This document shows positions 16,699 to 22,577 of a stretch of DNA of 64,000 nucleotides, one piece after another (position 1 is the stretch's first letter; each line of letters opens with the position of its first letter). Below the pieces are notes generated by a model that made no database searches, was not told where the DNA came from, and saw nothing but the letters and a program-made list of their open reading frames with translations. The position numbers were made by a program, and so were the translations under genes. The stretch comes from Candidatus Spongiisociaceae bacterium. GTDB taxonomy: Bacteria; Actinomycetota; Acidimicrobiia; Spongiisociales; Spongiisociaceae. The DNA is taken from positions 1,856,001 to 1,920,000 of the forward strand of contig OZ253564.1 in the NCBI GenBank assembly GCA_965262915.1, read 5' to 3'.

Positions 16699-17610
16699 CT
16701 AGAGTCGGGTCAGGAGGTATTGGGCGGCCATCAGGTCGAGGTGACCACCGCCGGCGTTCTTGAAGAAGGTGATGTCGTCTGCATGGGTCCGGCCTGGAAC
16801 TGCGCCGGTCACGAGTTGGCGGTGATCGCCGAGTACGTCCCCCGCTGTTATGGCCCCGGTGTTCATCGGGATTCCGATCTCGCCGGTATCGAAGGCGGAG
16901 TCCCGCGAGTCCACGAACACGCGGGATCGTGCGATCGCGTCGTCGTCCGCTTCGCGCATGTGAGGTAGGTAGGCGCCGACCAGGTCGAGGTGGGTTCCGG
17001 GACGCAGCCATGCCCCCCGGATGAGCGGTTCCACCGTCATCGTCGCGCACGACACGATGTCGGCCGTCTCGACCGCCACCTTGAGGTCGGCGGTCACTCT
17101 CACATCGAGATCGGCCAACTCTGCTGCCAAGGCTTCCGCTCGATCAGTCGTGCGGTTCCAGATCGTCACCTCCTGGATCGACGGGCGGGCCGCCATATGT
17201 GCCCGGATCAGATGCGGCGCCATGGCCCCAGCCCCCACCATCAACAAACTGGCGGCCTCGGACCGGGCGAGATACCTGGATGCCAGCGCAGAATCACATG
17301 CGGTTTTGAACCAAGTGAGGGCGTTGCCGACTATCACGGCGCGCTCCTGGCCGGTGACCGGGTCGAACACGACATAGACAGTGTGGATGGAAGGGAGGTC
17401 GATGTTCCCCGGAAATATCGTGGCCAGCTTTATGCCCAGACCGGCTCGGGCCGCGAATCCGGCTCTGGCCAGCAGGCCGTTACCGTCGCTGTCATCCGTG
17501 TAGAGGTCGGCTACCCGGGCCGGAGTCAATCGGTGACAAGCCTCGAAGAAATCGATGAGAGGTTCGTACTCCAGCAACTCCAAGGCGTCTTGATGGGATA
17601 AGACCTTCAT
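16699..17610 (-). CDS. Ornithine cyclodeaminase / mu-crystallin family protein
   Basis: GIKLATIFPGN, LTWFKTACDSALA, VGAGAMA, GTHLDLVGAY..MREAD, ITFFKNAGG. Confidence 0.88.
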   Translation of the reverse strand: MKVLSHQDALELLEYEPLIDFFEACHRLTPARVADLYTDDSDGNGLLARAGFAARAGLGIKLATIFPGNIDLPSIHTVYVVFDPVTGQERAVIVGNALTWFKTACDSALASRYLARSEAASLLMVGAGAMAPHLIRAHMAARPSIQEVTIWNRTTDRAEALAAELADLDVRVTADLKVAVETADIVSCATMTVEPLIRGAWLRPGTHLDLVGAYLPHMREADDDAIARSRVFVDSRDSAFDTGEIGIPMNTGAITAGDVLGDHRQLVTGAVPGRTHADDITFFKNAGGGHLDLMAAQYLLTRL

Positions 17611-17631
17611 CGCCGGCCACGCTAGCGGCAA

Positions 17632-17854
17632 GTGTCGGGTGTCGGGTGTCGGGTGTCGGGTGTCGGGTGTCGGGTGTCGGGTGTCGGGTGTCGGGTGTTT
17701 TCGGGTGCCAGGTGCCAGGTGTCAGGTGTCAGGTGTTTTCGGGTGCCAGGTGCCAGGTGCCAGGTGCCAGGTGCCAGGTTTCAGGTGCCAGGTTTCAGGT
17801 GTCAGGTTTCAGGTGTCGGGTTTCAGGTGTCGGGTGTCGGGGGTCGGCTGTCAG
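17632..17854. repeat. Heptanucleotide tandem repeat array (GTGTCGG / GTGCCAG / GTGTCAG / GTTTCAG), about 30 units
   Basis: Directly visible 7-bp periodicity, with two GTGTTTTCGG interruptions. Confidence 0.95.
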
Positions 17855-17957
17855 TGGTGACTGGCGGGACTGAAGGATGCCCGGTGCCGCTTATCTGTGT
17901 CGGTCACTCGCCCGTTCCGTAGCTGGCCACAGAACCCATCATCAAGGACTGACACCT

Positions 17958-18200
17958 AATGGGGGTCCACCACTTCTGCCGGTTTGTCTGGGAGGGTGTG
18001 GTGGTTGAGCTGGCCGGCCGGTGAGTACTGATGGCACCCGGAACGCTGATTCCTAGTGCTAGAGCGTACCCCGGCCGGTTCGCGAGGGCCGCTTGTAGCG
18101 CTCATGGGGTGGCGTGCCATAGAGCACTGATCCATTAGGTCGCCGCCAGGCGTTTCCTCTGCAGCTCTGCTGAGAGTAGACCCACGCAAGAGGGAGGCGA
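17958..18200 (+). ncRNA. Putative IS110 bridge RNA
   Basis: Target guides TGGCACC (18032-38) and GTGCTAG (18056-62) inside a ccggccgg..gtac/gtac..ccggccgg stem; donor guides TGGGGTG (18105-11) and CCATTAG (18132-38). Exact RNA ends unknown. Confidence 0.8.
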
Positions 18201-18204
18201 AGGG

Positions 18205-19428
18205 ATGTTGTTTGTTGGTAACGACTGGGCTGAGGGCCACCATGATGTGTGTCTGATGGACGAGGGGGGATCCCGGCTGGGTTTCGCCCGTCTCCCGGAA
18301 GGCCTGGCGGGTGTGGCCAAGTTGCATGAGATGATCGCCGAGCACGCATCGGATCCGGCTGACGTGGTGGTAGGAATCGAGACAGATCGTGGGCTGTGGG
18401 TTGGTGCGCTCATTGGGGCCGGCTATCAGGTGTATGCGATCAACCCTAGGGCGGTTTCCCGTTACCGGGACCGTCACAGCCTGGGCGGAGCGAAATCAGA
18501 CCGCGGTGATGCCAAGGTGTTAGCGGATCTGGTACGCACCGACCGTCACAACCACCGCCGGGTGGCCGGTGACAGTCCCGGGGCGGAAGGTATCAAGATC
18601 GTGGCCAGAACCCACCAGAACCTGATCTGGGCGAGGGTGCGTCACACCAACCAGTTACGCAACGCTCTGCGCGAATACTACCCCGCAGCGCTGGAAACGT
18701 TCGCTGACCTGGCCCATTCCGACGCTGTGGCCGTACTGGGTCGGGCACCTGTCCCCAGCATGGGCGCCCGCCTGACGTTGCCCCAGATCCGAGCTGCGCT
18801 CAAAGCGGGCGGACGGAAACGCAACCTCGATCCGGTCGCCCGCAAAATACAGAACGGCCTCCGCGCCGCTCACCTCAGCGCACCCCCGGCGGTCGCCGAC
18901 GCCTTCGGAGCGACCGTGGGGGCACTGGTGAGCATCATCGCGGAGGCCAACCGCCAGATCAGCCAACTCGAAGCAACCCTCCAGACCCGTTTTGAGCAGC
19001 ACCCGGACGCCGTCATCTACCACTCCCAGCCAGGACTCGGTACTGTGCTCGGCGCCCGGGCGCTCGATAAGTGTTCGGGGACGACCCCCACCGTTACACC
19101 GGGGCCAAGTCCCGCCGCAACTACGCCGGAACGTCGCCCATCACAGTGGCGTCAGGCCGCAAACGTGCTGTCCTGGCCCGCCACGTCCGAAAAGCGGCGT
19201 CTCTACGACGCCCTGGACCAATGGGCGTTCTGTTCCCTAACCCCAAGCCCAGGAGCCCGAGCCTTCTACGACCAGAAACGAGCAGCCGGCGACCTCCACC
19301 ACCAAGCACTCCGAGCCCTAGCCAACCGCCTCGTAGGCATCCTCCACGGCTGCCTCAAACACCGAACGCCCTACAACGAACACACCGCCTGGGCACACCG
19401 AACCACCATCGACCAAGCCGCAGCTTGA
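18205..19428 (+). CDS. IS110 transposase/recombinase with an internal out-of-frame segment (~19071-19193)
   Basis: DEDD RuvC-like motifs FVGNDW, GIETD, KSDRGDA; C-terminal HHQALRALANRLVGILHGCL; conserved FGDDPHRY...YAGTSPITVASG is present only in another frame. Confidence 0.9.
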   Translation: MLFVGNDWAEGHHDVCLMDEGGSRLGFARLPEGLAGVAKLHEMIAEHASDPADVVVGIETDRGLWVGALIGAGYQVYAINPRAVSRYRDRHSLGGAKSDRGDAKVLADLVRTDRHNHRRVAGDSPGAEGIKIVARTHQNLIWARVRHTNQLRNALREYYPAALETFADLAHSDAVAVLGRAPVPSMGARLTLPQIRAALKAGGRKRNLDPVARKIQNGLRAAHLSAPPAVADAFGATVGALVSIIAEANRQISQLEATLQTRFEQHPDAVIYHSQPGLGTVLGARALDKCSGTTPTVTPGPSPAATTPERRPSQWRQAANVLSWPATSEKRRLYDALDQWAFCSLTPSPGARAFYDQKRAAGDLHHQALRALANRLVGILHGCLKHRTPYNEHTAWAHRTTIDQAAA

Positions 19429-19450
19429 CATTTACGCGCCTGGGGTGTCT
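19425..19450 (+). promoter_or_regulatory. -35 half of the IS110 circle-junction promoter
   Basis: TTGACA 19425-30 + 17 nt + TCT|AAT formed on joining the right end to the left end. Confidence 0.7.
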
Positions 19451-19461
19451 AGCACCTGTGG

Positions 19462-19486
19462 TCGGGTGTCAGGTGTCAGGTGTTAG
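19462..19486. repeat. Short heptamer repeat cluster (GGTGTCA-type)
   Basis: tcgggtgtcaggtgtcaggtgttag. Confidence 0.75.
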
Positions 19487-19713
19487 GGGGGCTGGCGGGG
19501 CGGCAAGGTCCTCGGTCTCTTTAGCCTCTGGCGGTGGCGGGAGACAGGTGCAGGGTGTCTTGAGCCATAGCGGTGACCCGATCAGCCCGTAGTGGCCTCA
19601 GTTCCATCATCCTGGCGCCTAGCAACGGACAACCGCCACCAGCCACGCCTCTTCTCATGGCTACTGACCTGCTCGGAGGGCCCATGGCATTCCGAATGCT
19701 GTCCGGTCGCCCC

Positions 19714-19743
19714 CTAACACCTAGCACCTAACACCCAACACCT
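19714..19743. repeat. Short heptamer repeat cluster in inverted orientation
   Basis: ctaacac ctagcac ctaacac ccaacac ct, the reverse complement of GTGYYRG-type units. Confidence 0.75.
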
Positions 19744-19751
19744 GGCCGGGG

Positions 19752-22460
19752 TTATCCGGTGTTGCGCATGCCTGCCGCGATGCCGTTGATGGTCATCAGC
19801 AGGCCGCGCTGGTACTTGTGGGGGTCACCTGAACGGGAACGCTGTAACAACTCGACCTGCAGCACGTTCAACGGGTCGAGATAGGCGTCTCTTACCGCAA
19901 GCGTGCGGCGCAGGAGCGGGCGATCCGCCAGCAGGTCGGTCCGGGTGACCCGCCGGATAGCGGCGATGGTACGGGCGTACTCCGCGGTGATCATGTCGAA
20001 CAGACTGCGGTGTTCGGCAGGTACCAGGTTGTCCACGTAGTGGCGGGCGATGGACAGGTCGGTCTTGGCCAGGGTCATCTCGACGTTGGAGACGAAGGTC
20101 CGGAAGAAGGGCCATTCTCGGTACATCCGAGCCAGTTCCTCACCGTCCCCGGCCGCGAATGCCGCCTCGAATCCGCTGCCCACCCCGTACCAACCCGGAA
20201 CGATCTGGCGTGACTGCGTCCAACCGAACACCCAGGGGATAGCCCTCAGATTGCTCACGCCGATCTTCTCCCTGTTTCTCCTGGCGGGGCGGGAGCCGAT
20301 GTTGAGGAGGCTCAACTCCTCAACCGGGGTCGATGTCGTGAAGTACTCGACCAGGCCGGGCTTCTCGATGAGCTGACGGTAGGTCCTGAAGGAGGCGGCG
20401 GATACGAGGTCCATTACGCGGTACCACCGTTGAACGTCCTCGATGGCGTGGTCCGGGGTGCGGCGGGCCAGAGATGCCTCGACCAGTGCCGACAGGCCCA
20501 GTTCGAGGTTCTGGGAGGCCAGACCCGCCAGCCCGTACTTGTCGGCGATCACCTCACCCTGCTCGGTGAGCTTGATGACGCCATCGAGGGCCCCGTAGGG
20601 CTGGCTCAGAATGGCGGCGTGGGTGGGTCCCCCACCCCGTCCTATGGATCCTCCCCGTCCGTGGAACACCTCGATGCGAATCCCGGTCCGGCGGGAAAGG
20701 TCGCGGATGGTCAGCAGCGCCTTGTGGATCTCCCACTGGGAAGTGGTGATCCCCCCGTCCTTGTTCGAGTCGGAGTACCCGACCATCACTTCCTGGGCGT
20801 TGCCCCGTAGTCCCAGGAGCCGGCGGTAAGCGCGCACCTCGAACAACTCCCGGAGGATGGGACCGATGGAAGTCAGATCGTCGATCGTCTCGAACAGGGG
20901 GACGAAGCCGAGTCGGGCCACATCCCGGGCCGGATCCACCAGACCGACCTCGCGGGCCAGCAGCACCGGTGCCAGGATGTCGTCCAGCCCACGGGTCATG
21001 GAGATGATGTACGACTCGACGACTTGGTCCCCGTGCGCATCCAGGAGTTGGCGAAGCAGCCGGAACAACTCCAGCGTGTCGTCACCGGGATCGTTGCCCG
21101 GCGGTGCGACCGGACGGGAACCCGACAACTCGTCGACGAGGAACCGCGTTCGCTCGTTGCGGTCGAGGTCGCCGTACTCGATGTCAAGGCAGGCCGTAAG
21201 GGCGGCGATTGCTCGATGGTGGTGGTCGGTGTGCTGGCGGATGTCGAGTGCTGCTAGGTGGAACCCTATCGTCGCTGCCAGACCCCTGGTCCGGGCGAGC
21301 CGGCCTGTGGCCATTAGCAAGCCTCGGTTCTCGCGCAGGGAAGCATCGATGAGAGCCAGGTCAGCGAGTAGTTCCGTCGGGTTGGAGTAGGCGTGGGGAC
21401 CACCGTCGCGCGTGTCCATCAGCCGCGAGCGGATGATCGTCAAGGCCTGACGGTATGGCTCGAGCTCCCTGGCCTCGGACAGCGAATCGCGGTGGGTGTC
21501 CCGGTGCCGGGCGATGAAGTCCACGAGCGCGGCCGACGCGTCAGTCACGGTGGCACTGATGCTCAACTCGGCCGCCAGCTCGGTTATCTCGGCGGTCAGG
21601 ATGTCCAGAGCGGTCCTGCGCTGCTGGTCGAGCACAGTCCGGGTCGTCGCGGGCGTGACGTTCGGGTTTCCGTCCCGGTCGCCTCCCACCCACGAACCGA
21701 ACCGGATCGGGCTATGGTTCCCGTCGAGTTCGCCCCCGATCAGCCGAACCGCTGCTGCGATGTTGTCCAGCAACCCGGGTATAGCCTCGCGGATGGTCTG
21801 TTCGAGGTAGTGGCGGACAAATCGGGCTTCGTCGATCGGGTCCGGTCGCTCGTCGCGTATCTCGTCGGTCTGCCAAATGACCTCTATCAACTCGGCGACC
21901 CGCCTGTCGATCTGTGCCTGGTCGGATGCGGACACCCGGGGGTTGCTCCGGGACGCCGTGGCTTGAGCGATCGCGGTCAGTTTCTCGAGGATGGTAGGTC
22001 GTGTCGCCTCGGTCGGGTGGGCGGTGAAAACCGGCTTCAGGATCGCCCGGTTGACCAGGGCGGCCACTTCGCCTGGTGATATACCCCCTTCTACGAGGGC
22101 GATAAGGCAGTCCTCGAATCCCTGTTCTGGAGTATGCCCCTCGACGTTGAGGTCCTCGACACGATGCACCTGCTCGATGATGTTGGCCAGATGGAAGTAG
22201 ACGGTGAAGGCCCGCACCATCTGCACGGCGAATTCGAGGTCCATGTTCCGGAGAAGCGCGGCCAGTTCATGGGACACCTCCGCCTGTTCGAGCCGTAACC
22301 GGCGCGAGAGGGTCCGCACCCGTTCCACCGAATCGAGCAGCCCACGGCCATGCTGGTGGACCAGCGTGGTGCCCAACTGCCGAGCGAGTCGCCGGATGTC
22401 GGCGCGCAGACCGGCGTCGATTGCATCCAAGGGGTAGATGTGGGCGACAACCTCCGGCAT
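19752..22460 (-). CDS. ppc: Phosphoenolpyruvate carboxylase
   Basis: VFTAHPTE, SWVGGDRDGNP, VPLFET, QEVMVGYSDSNKDGG, FHGRGGSIGRGGGP, LRAIPWVFGWTQSR, GIAAGMRNTG. Confidence 0.97.
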   Translation of the reverse strand: MPEVVAHIYPLDAIDAGLRADIRRLARQLGTTLVHQHGRGLLDSVERVRTLSRRLRLEQAEVSHELAALLRNMDLEFAVQMVRAFTVYFHLANIIEQVHRVEDLNVEGHTPEQGFEDCLIALVEGGISPGEVAALVNRAILKPVFTAHPTEATRPTILEKLTAIAQATASRSNPRVSASDQAQIDRRVAELIEVIWQTDEIRDERPDPIDEARFVRHYLEQTIREAIPGLLDNIAAAVRLIGGELDGNHSPIRFGSWVGGDRDGNPNVTPATTRTVLDQQRRTALDILTAEITELAAELSISATVTDASAALVDFIARHRDTHRDSLSEARELEPYRQALTIIRSRLMDTRDGGPHAYSNPTELLADLALIDASLRENRGLLMATGRLARTRGLAATIGFHLAALDIRQHTDHHHRAIAALTACLDIEYGDLDRNERTRFLVDELSGSRPVAPPGNDPGDDTLELFRLLRQLLDAHGDQVVESYIISMTRGLDDILAPVLLAREVGLVDPARDVARLGFVPLFETIDDLTSIGPILRELFEVRAYRRLLGLRGNAQEVMVGYSDSNKDGGITTSQWEIHKALLTIRDLSRRTGIRIEVFHGRGGSIGRGGGPTHAAILSQPYGALDGVIKLTEQGEVIADKYGLAGLASQNLELGLSALVEASLARRTPDHAIEDVQRWYRVMDLVSAASFRTYRQLIEKPGLVEYFTTSTPVEELSLLNIGSRPARRNREKIGVSNLRAIPWVFGWTQSRQIVPGWYGVGSGFEAAFAAGDGEELARMYREWPFFRTFVSNVEMTLAKTDLSIARHYVDNLVPAEHRSLFDMITAEYARTIAAIRRVTRTDLLADRPLLRRTLAVRDAYLDPLNVLQVELLQRSRSGDPHKYQRGLLMTINGIAAGMRNTG

Positions 22461-22467
22461 GGTCTCG

Positions 22468-22577
22468 GAGGGTACTGAAAAAGTCCCGTACAAAGGATTC
22501 GCTTGCTAGCCCACAACTCTCAGATCAAGTGGTTTGCCGACCAGCGAACCCCGCAAGATCCGTTTTTAAGTACCCTC
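22468..22577. mobile_element. MITE family B copy 1 (110 bp)
   Basis: TIRs GAGGGTACTGAAAAA / TTTTTAAGTACCCTC; flanking 4-bp direct repeat CTCG; homologous to 47532-47641. Confidence 0.85.

Follow-up and report, generated by a model that had tools for sequence, protein, structure and literature searches.

Predicted bridge-RNA guides of an IS110-subgroup insertion sequence match the heptamer arrays of its Candidatus Spongiisociaceae host

How does an insertion sequence come to lie exactly at the junction of two units of a 7-bp tandem repeat while carrying, in its own non-coding end, short words that match that junction? The question is raised by an IS110-family element (copy c1; 17956-19450, plus strand, 1495 bp) in a 64,000-nucleotide stretch of contig OZ253564.1 from a Candidatus Spongiisociaceae bacterium, a stretch that we call the window and to which coordinates refer unless genome positions are named. 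The host genome, a single contig of 5.06 Mb, holds 23 matches to the element, 11 of them full length (c1-c11, 84-100% identity; c1 is 84-92% identical to the 10 others). We conclude, with a probability that we put at about 0.88, that 17956-19450 is an IS110-subgroup copy with a bridge RNA of the IS621 type in its left end, and that it belongs to a clade retargeted to the YGRCACC arrays of its host.

The boundaries of the element are fixed by empty sites: two uninterrupted paralogous sites in the genome equal the flanks of copies c8 and c9 joined through a single CT. In c1, the left CT core (17956-17957, plus strand) is preceded by the left target arm tgacac (17950-17955) and followed by the right donor sequence AATGGGG (17958-17964), and the right CT core (19449-19450, plus strand) stands between the left donor sequence TGGGGTGT (19441-19448) and the right target arm agcacct (19451-19457). 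The flanks thus read ctgacac (17949-17955) on the left and agcacct on the right, and an initial annotation of the locus had placed the cores correctly, both in proposing that removal of the element leaves ctgacac-CT-agcacct and in deriving the donor tggggtgt-CT-aatgggg from the circularised element. A 98%-identical paralogue of the c1 left flank runs uninterrupted into CTGGCAC units (...GGACTGACAC-CTGGCACCTGGCAC). For comparison, the left ends of 27 full-length copies were aligned, comprising the 11 from this genome and 16 from four genus-mates (G001, G002, G005 and G006). All 27 begin with CTAATG, 26 end with TGGGGTGTCT (the exception being c11), and CT is found at both ends of all 27 (the right end of c11 being aberrant), as expected of scarless insertion at a CT core. 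Terminal inverted repeats are absent and both junctions share the core dinucleotide, a combination characteristic of the IS110 subgroup. In c11 (genome 290122-291611), instead of ...TGGGGTGT-CT, the right end runs ...CCTGGGG and then ATGCTC-CT, which duplicates the left target arm, and an intact target abuts the shortened end. At the right junctions of c2-c5 (for example, genome 1361318-1361336), the end and the flank together form the palindrome GGTGTC-T-GACACC, which indicates that the conserved left-donor sequence resembles the reverse complement of the heptamer unit.

The left end of c1 is non-coding for 249 nt (17956-18204), with an ATG at 18205, and it holds four guide words in order on the plus strand. 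The left target guide (LTG), TGGCACC at 18032-18038, covers six positions of the left target together with the core's first base; the right target guide (RTG), GTGCTAG at 18056-18062, is the exact reverse complement of CT plus AGCAC. The left donor guide, TGGGGTG at 18105-18111, matches the right end of the element at 19441-19447, and the right donor guide (RDG), CCATTAG at 18132-18138, reproduces CTAATGG (17956-17962) in reverse complement. The initial annotation had named these four words and their relations to flanks and ends, all of which we recover. The arrangement is that described for IS621 by Durrant et al., in whose account the LTG reproduces the top strand of the left target and pairs with the bottom strand, the right target in reverse complement gives the RTG, and the donor guides follow the same construction. 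Column entropy in the aligned left ends sets the two kinds of guide apart. Relative to 0.66 bits for the RNA overall, the target-guide columns are the most variable (1.43 bits for the LTG and 1.60 bits for the five non-core columns of the RTG), and the donor-guide columns are nearly fixed (0.17 bits on the left and 0.15 bits on the right). Variable target guides combined with fixed donor guides are the pattern expected of a bridge RNA. The donor guides are complementary to the element's own ends in c1, and the RDG is exact in 23 of the 27 copies. On inspection, both loops also fit the handshake rule of Hiraizumi et al., according to which each loop is complementary to position 7 of the non-cognate DNA: the A at 18063 that follows the RTG (after CUAG) is complementary to donor T7, and the GT at 18139-18140 that follows the RDG is complementary to target positions 6-7 (AC), the G (after UUAG) facing target C7 and, in the heptamer clade, the next U facing target A6.

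Where the copies lie bears directly on what these guides do. Heptamer junctions of the form ...RCAC|CT-element-CT|RRCAC... surround seven of the 11 full-length copies (c1-c7), as well as a rearranged derivative (genome 2736781-2737490) and a fragment of the right end that stops at genome 1548912, and all nine loci share one register and one orientation. Homing to heptamers, as the initial annotation had proposed, is therefore what the census of this genome displays. The accompanying expectation that every other copy would likewise sit at a heptamer junction holds for c1-c7 and fails elsewhere, in that four of the 11 copies in this genome and all 16 genus-mate copies occupy other sites (AAGGCTC-CT-ATCA... 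for c8, c9 and c10; GATGCTC-CT-ATGG... for c11). The copies in unrelated sequence nonetheless support the model, because their guides differ to match the sites in which they reside. When the 27 whole elements, guide columns included, are placed in a FastTree tree, c1-c7 group as a single clade (local support 0.998), of which c1 is the most diverged member (87-92% identity). The near-identity of c6 and c7 (99.4%; nine differences in 1486 positions, at different loci) and of c8 and c9 (99.3%) suggests recent movement. All eight heptamer-context insertions for which both flanks are available lie at, or at most two units from, the edge of an array; c6, for example, has 25 units on its left and one on its right. 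The rearranged derivative comprises left-end bases 1-86, some 300 bp that include a duplicate of part of the host DNA from just right of the element, and then the last ~340 bp of the element, the whole being flanked by GTGGCAC|CT and CT|GGCACCTGGCA.

Within the heptamer clade, the target guides follow the local unit variant closely. Three RTG alleles occur, each next to its own match: GTGCTAG beside CT-AGCAC (c1), GTGTCAG beside CT-GACAC (c2-c5) and GTGCCAG beside CT-GGCAC (c6 and c7), so that in seven of seven copies all 7 nt of the RTG agree with the adjoining flank. The LTG is TGGCACC in six copies and CGGCACC in c5, whose flank is CGACAC. Compared with the six core-adjacent bases, its sole departure in six of the seven copies is a G opposite a target A, and c4 has one more mismatch. 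The initial annotation had recorded this one-transition mismatch in c1, which is real; because the LTG pairs with the bottom strand in the scheme of Durrant et al., it reads as an rG:dT wobble. The LTG is moreover identical to the reverse complement (TGGCACC) of GGTGYCR units in the neighbouring array at 17632-17840, as had also been pointed out at the outset. By the same logic of pairing, GUGUCAG would also be able to read CT-GGCAC via rU:dG, and GUGCCAG would be unable to read CT-GACAC. The c1 LTG is shared with two G002 copies that carry the RTG GAGCTAG and lie in non-repeat DNA, and the RTG sequences can be arranged in a putative series, GAGCUAG, GUGCUAG, GUGCCAG, GUGUCAG, with one substitution per step.

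The correspondence between guides and flanks extends well past the heptamer clade. Lineage B carries AGGCTCCT / TGATAG, lineage C carries ATGCTCCT / ACATAG, and other copies carry CACCCTCC / GGGCTAG and variants, each matching its own flanks. Across the 27 full copies, which come from five genomes and represent 25 distinct guide/flank combinations, guides match flanks at 10.16 of 13 non-core positions, versus 6.82 (sd 0.40) when the flanks are permuted, and none of 20000 permutations reaches the observed value; since the copies are related, the permutations overstate their independence, although at least 17 guide classes are still represented. Outside the genus, 20 distinct loci (a set that leaves out 13 genus-mate rows, six rows with a guide gap and two without a recognisable right end) give 8.9 of 12, versus 5.14 (sd 0.39) permuted, again with 0 of 20000 permutations reaching the observed match. 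The covariation of guide and target that the initial annotation had suggested as a check is thus present in both sets, and the target guides of this element covary with the flanking target DNA as those of the IS110 subgroup do.

We next consider the fold that would present these guides. In the RNAalifold consensus, three elements are predicted on the plus strand: a 5' hairpin (17967-18004, columns 12-49; 85% of cells paired, 86 distinct sequences), a target-binding stem-loop (18013-18079) and a donor-binding stem-loop (18092-18149). In the target-binding stem-loop, both target guides fall in an internal loop between a basal helix (14 pairs, eight with changes on both sides, 97.8% paired) and the apical helix GGAA/TTCC (18040-18043/18050-18053; four pairs, three with changes on both sides, 98.6% paired). 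Of the 13 pairs in the fold with such double changes, 11 belong to the target-loop helices (11 of their 18 pairs). The basal helix of the donor loop is weaker (74-87% paired), and its apical helix, GTGC/GCAC (18114-18117/18124-18127), is 98.2% paired but uninformative because it is nearly invariant. When the fold is scored over 55 distinct left ends aligned with MAFFT, records from Rhodococcus, Mycobacterium, Nocardia, Gordonia and Acidimicrobiia among them, 92.0% of cells pair, as against 30-51% when the partners are slid; 91 cells are changed on both sides, versus 27.7 (sd 4.0) in shuffles; and the covariation score of 0.229 compares with 0.134 in shuffled alignments, none of 500 shuffles reaching it. 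The modelling thus predicts a structured left-end RNA with two internal loops, as found in the IS110 subgroup. The exposure of the guides in loops that the initial annotation had anticipated is borne out by the family consensus and not by single-sequence folding, in which the LTG pairs with the RTG.

A source for such an RNA is suggested by the joined ends of the element. A -35-like hexamer, TTGACA, at 19425-19430 (plus strand) would in a circle stand 17 nt upstream of TCTAAT, which is itself formed across the junction (19448-19450 plus 17958-17960). A script finds TTGACA-17 nt-TCTAAT across the joined ends of 26 of the 27 copies, c11 being the only copy without it. In the account of Durrant et al., the circular form of the element drives the guide RNA from a promoter at the junction; the motif and spacing here point to a promoter that would likewise be assembled at the circle junction, and its activity is read from that arrangement.

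The protein-coding part of the family is equally recognisable, and in c1 it is broken. The DEDD domain (PF01548) is matched at 119.8 bits in c1 and at 115.6 bits in the intact paralogue c2. The C-terminal serine domain (PF02371) was not found in either reading of c1; in c2 it is matched at 36.3 bits (cut-off 21.3), and it is thus present in intact copies. With 181.7 bits (cut-off 140), the c2 protein also matches the NCBIfam model NF033542, "IS110 family RNA-guided transposase". Its sole PDB match is the IS621 transposase (E 1.3e-07), with which the E, the D..D pair and the SG serine (VASG versus YESG) align. The family assignment and IS621-like layout given in the initial annotation therefore stand, by PF01548 in c1, NF033542 in c2 and the guide arrangement of Durrant et al. 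An open 406-aa frame is retained in six of the 11 full-length copies (c2, c6, c7, c8, c9 and c10). In c1, the gene (18205-19428, plus strand) is a pseudogene whose frame is broken twice, by insertions of +2 at 19071-19072 and of +1 near 19190; its DEDD domain is intact and about 39 codons, including the catalytic-serine stretch (~19152), are out of frame, which the single 407-aa ORF of c1 masks. Because of these two frameshifts, c1 is unable to make its own recombinase. We take c1 to be an IS110 member by descent, judging from its 87-92% DNA identity to the intact c2, c6 and c7, and yet a pseudogene-bearing, non-autonomous relic, which would be mobile only with enzyme supplied in trans by intact paralogues.

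The +1 insertion of an A near 19190 is common to c1, c3, c4, c5 and c11 (CCGAAAAGCGG versus CCGTAACCGG in intact copies). In c3 and c4 it yields a 414-aa ORF that ends in a low-complexity tail, and the variant is widespread, since database proteins 89-95% identical to c2 also have 414 residues. A programmed frameshift at this point was considered and set aside: recurrence is the sole point in its favour, and the mosaic make-up of the copies accounts for the sharing. Membership in the IS1111 subgroup was likewise rejected. IS1111-type elements carry the guide RNA in a long non-coding right end; here the structured RNA lies in the 249-nt left end, and the stop codon of the ORF ends at 19428, only 22 bp short of the end of the element.

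Strict arrays of at least three NGRCACC units number 73 in this genome, and the 3423 bases in arrays of at least two units make up 0.068% of it. For c2-type guides, 299 candidate sites are available if wobble is allowed; the c6 type has 211 and the c1 type seven, whereas base composition predicts 0.9. The repeat is largely particular to this host: a four-unit heptamer pattern occurs 171 times in its genome and 10, four and three times in the genus-mates G007, G002 and G001, and the remaining 37 of the 41 genomes searched yielded no match. In G007, arrays are present and element left ends stand beside heptamer-like flanks; because the contigs break inside the element, its target loops are unreadable, and we leave this genome out of the supporting evidence; none of our conclusions draws on the unpublished genome G039. 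The target-loop word of the heptamer clade had no match in the metagenome contigs scanned. Judged by a crude gene proxy of 3021 ORFs (62% of the genome), 54 of the 73 arrays are wholly clear of likely genes, 11 are partly so and eight fall inside, which fits, and does not prove, the idea that arrays serve as safe sites.

Around c1 itself, an array of GGTGYCR units (17632-17840, no strand assigned), the reverse complement of the target unit YGRCACC, lies to the left, and a short, unoccupied run in target orientation (CTAACAC CTAGCAC CTAACAC ...; 19712-19745, plus strand) lies to the right. Between the former and the element is the 106-nt core of a dispersed repeat (17850-17955, plus strand), the last bases of which form the left target arm and which has 16 nhmmer hits in the genome; c1 and c5 are both placed at edges of this repeat. 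The repeat typically stands between inverted arrays, GGTGYCR upstream and YGRCACC downstream, with arrays on both sides in six of the 16 cases and on one side in eight. It has no Rfam match, and may represent a MITE-like element or else a structured RNA. The notion that the arrays in general are arms of this repeat was rejected, since only 10 of the 73 lie within 60 nt of a core.

Taken together, the anatomy of the element suggests the following route to its present position. The guides of the target-binding loop, UGGCACC and GUGCUAG, would specify a 14-bp site of two adjacent heptamers, TGRCAC-CT-AGCAC, and those of the donor loop would specify the element's own joined ends, TGGGGTGT-CT-AATGG. 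The element would leave as a circle, whose joined ends would create the promoter TTGACA-17 nt-TCTAAT that drives the bridge RNA, and the RNA-guided DEDD/serine recombinase would then exchange strands at the CT cores of circle and target, giving a scarless insertion. One clade, represented by c1-c7 and the two fragments, appears to have been retargeted in this way to YGRCACC microsatellite arrays, with a left guide that would cover TGGCAC and, through the rG:dT wobble, TGACAC units, and with three RTG alleles that may have arisen by single substitutions in series, each beside its matching unit. Sister lineages have other guides and occupy other multi-copy sequences. Of this scheme, the sequence itself displays the anatomy, the covariation of guides and flanks, the RNA fold, the origin of the heptamer-homing copies in a single clade and the census of sites; transcription, the circle, present activity and mobilisation in trans are what we infer from it.

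Several observations weigh against this interpretation, and we gather them here. Occupancy is low, at nine loci for approximately 300 candidate sites, and five of the 11 full-length copies have a broken recombinase, the frameshifted c1 among them. The second core base, T, is unmatched by the LTG of the heptamer clade, which ends in CC and not CT. In four of the 27 copies, the RDG is mismatched to the element's own left end (CTGCTAG for CCATTAG). At locus L027 of G001, a full-length copy carries the guides GAGCTCCT / ACATAG at the site ATGCTC-CT-ATCAGG and matches it at only 6/9 and 4/8 positions; insertion by the RNA of another copy acting in trans, or a recombinant element, would fit this mismatch. 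An Rfam scan of 17400-19800 with E up to 1 finds no family that matches the left end. The tree that unites c1-c7 is only approximate, because the copies are mosaic. Finally, in single-sequence folds, the two target guides of the heptamer clade pair with each other in a 6-bp helix, and their mean unpaired probability is ~0.15 in c1-c7, as compared with 0.33-0.84 in the other 20 copies. This mutual complementarity follows from the target itself, whose left and right arms are the same repeat unit. If the folding model is right, either protein has to open the target loop or activity may be low; the insertion record shows that the guides have worked in the past.

The donor-loop variants merit a separate remark. 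CTGCTAG is carried by c5, c10, c11 and locus L055 of G002, with the elements' own ends unchanged, and the bases preceding the left donor guide are GAG instead of CAT in c5, c9, c10 and c11. These variants are scattered over lineages, as if spread by gene conversion.

If the elements had inserted almost at random and survived only where they did no harm, their presence in neutral arrays would be a matter of retention and the guide matches would be coincidental. The location of 54 of the 73 arrays outside likely genes, crude as the proxy is, means that insertions there should be tolerated; survival of this kind would nevertheless leave insertions in any of 14 possible register and orientation states, of which the nine heptamer-context insertions share one, and it would account neither for RTG alleles that match the local unit variant in seven of seven copies nor for lineages with other guides that occupy other, guide-matched sequences. 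We regard this explanation as extremely improbable. A different doubt is whether the clade, having homed to heptamers in the past, is now inactive, in which case the locus would be history and not a working system. The state of c1, at once the most diverged copy of the clade (87-92% identity) and frameshifted, is in keeping with this, as are the broken frames of four of the seven heptamer-clade copies and a self-pairing target loop that could reduce activity. Set against these are c2, c6 and c7, which keep open 406-aa frames with both Pfam domains, the nine differences in 1486 positions that separate c6 from c7 at their different loci, and the guides, donor ends and junction promoter that are intact in seven of seven copies, and we consider a wholly inactive family unlikely.

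The direction of cause might also be the opposite, or run both ways, if the recombinase makes or expands the arrays, for instance by half-site reactions, such that they are not a pre-existing target. The arrays are most abundant in the sole genome that has the heptamer-homing clade (171 four-unit matches versus at most 10 elsewhere), the right end GGTGTCT is similar to the unit's reverse complement and with the right flank forms GGTGTC-T-GACACC, and insertions sit at array edges in eight of eight loci. Most of the 73 arrays, however, have no element nearby, only nine loci being occupied; G005 and G006 have at least seven element copies each and lack the four-unit pattern; and the sequence of the right end is conserved across relatives that include Rhodococcus and Mycobacterium. 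Repeat units in the cited preprint are at least 50 bp, and replication slippage explains 7-bp arrays without an enzyme. We therefore judge it very unlikely that the element produced its own target. In a variant of this idea, element and microsatellite would co-evolve: hundreds of guide-matched sites stand in direct and inverted orientation, and the recombinase might act on arrays via target-loop-only "half-match" reactions with the self-pairing loop as a brake. Were this so, array length could change, and inverted arrays that flank a 106-nt core could flip that core; array expansion in one genome, the edge placement of the insertions and the right-junction palindrome would all be explained. 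We offer co-evolution as a long shot.

Other features near and within the element complete the description of the locus. Copy c1 lies between a phosphoenolpyruvate carboxylase gene (19752-22493, minus strand) and a gene of the ornithine cyclodeaminase family (16699-17631, minus strand). Within the element, the Rfam family Ms_AS-4 (RF02464) is matched at 19026-19109 on the minus strand with 68.9 bits (gathering score 50), the one hit above threshold in the scan of 17400-19800; the match is antisense to the recombinase gene and spans the region of the +2 frameshift, and it probably reflects conserved IS110 coding sequence. A second IS110-family element is found in the genome at 541931-546205 (locus L152) and at more than 30 related places; it measures 1483 bp and has a 421-aa ORF with PF01548 and PF02371, and at L152, two identical inverted copies of it flank an ISL3 transposase gene. 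Lineage B (c8, c9, c10 and genus copies) is inserted ~143-145 bp into the non-coding left end of this second element, and the target of lineage C lies ~20 bp from its other end, indicating that one IS110 element is aimed at another.

The mechanism to which these findings point is the known IS110/bridge-RNA one and not a new one, so that the model is unchanged and the value of the locus lies in natural history and in hints for design. In the literature searched, we found no microsatellite target described for IS110 elements, the supplementary target tables of large surveys, which may list such targets, lying outside that search; the heptamer microsatellite is thus apparently an undescribed natural target class, in line with what the initial annotation had supposed. 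A single genome here preserves a series of retargeted guides, with three RTG alleles and sister lineages aimed at other multi-copy DNA. The rG:dT and rU:dG wobbles suggest that one guide may cover several target variants, and whether the self-pairing loop is tolerated or acts as a brake bears on the design of bridge RNAs against repeated sequences.

Several known systems invite comparison. Among Actinomycetota (records from Rhodococcus, Mycobacterium, Nocardia, Gordonia and Acidimicrobiia), related IS110 elements have 60-83% protein identity, left ends that can be aligned as DNA, and the same CTAATGG start, donor guides and fold; they differ in target guides and flanks, heptamer flanks occurring in none of the 20 distinct loci compared outside the genus. 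ISPpu10 of Pseudomonas putida, as characterised in the published description, is also an IS110 element, with all of its insertions in copies of one conserved intergenic sequence and a recombinase that acts in trans. Its target has a GC-rich stem-loop as a second specificity determinant, and some of the arrays here flank the 106-nt core in inverted orientation. IS4321 and IS5075, which are described as targeting transposon ends, find a parallel in lineages B and C, which sit in the second IS110-family element's non-coding ends; they belong to the IS1111 subgroup, however, and c1 targets a microsatellite and not another element.

The reference element of this kind is IS621 of Escherichia coli. 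Durrant et al. write that IS110 elements "often target repetitive elements" and give the REP sequence as an example. As described for IS621, the element here pairs a DEDD plus serine recombinase with a CT core, a left-end bridge RNA with target and donor loops, fitting handshake positions, an RNA that would issue from the circle junction, and a natural target present in many copies, REP in the case of IS621. The two proteins are only remotely similar (E 1.3e-07), an RTG of 7 nt here compares with four bases in the IS621 analysis as reported, and the second core base is unmatched by the LTG of the heptamer clade, in a further difference from IS621. The two also part in the nature of the target, which is the REP palindrome for IS621 and a 7-bp tandem repeat here. 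With a tandem repeat as target, every unit junction offers the site anew, an insertion leaves neighbouring sites in place, and the two target guides become complementary to one another; such a microsatellite is a target that renews itself and is not destroyed by the elements that enter it.

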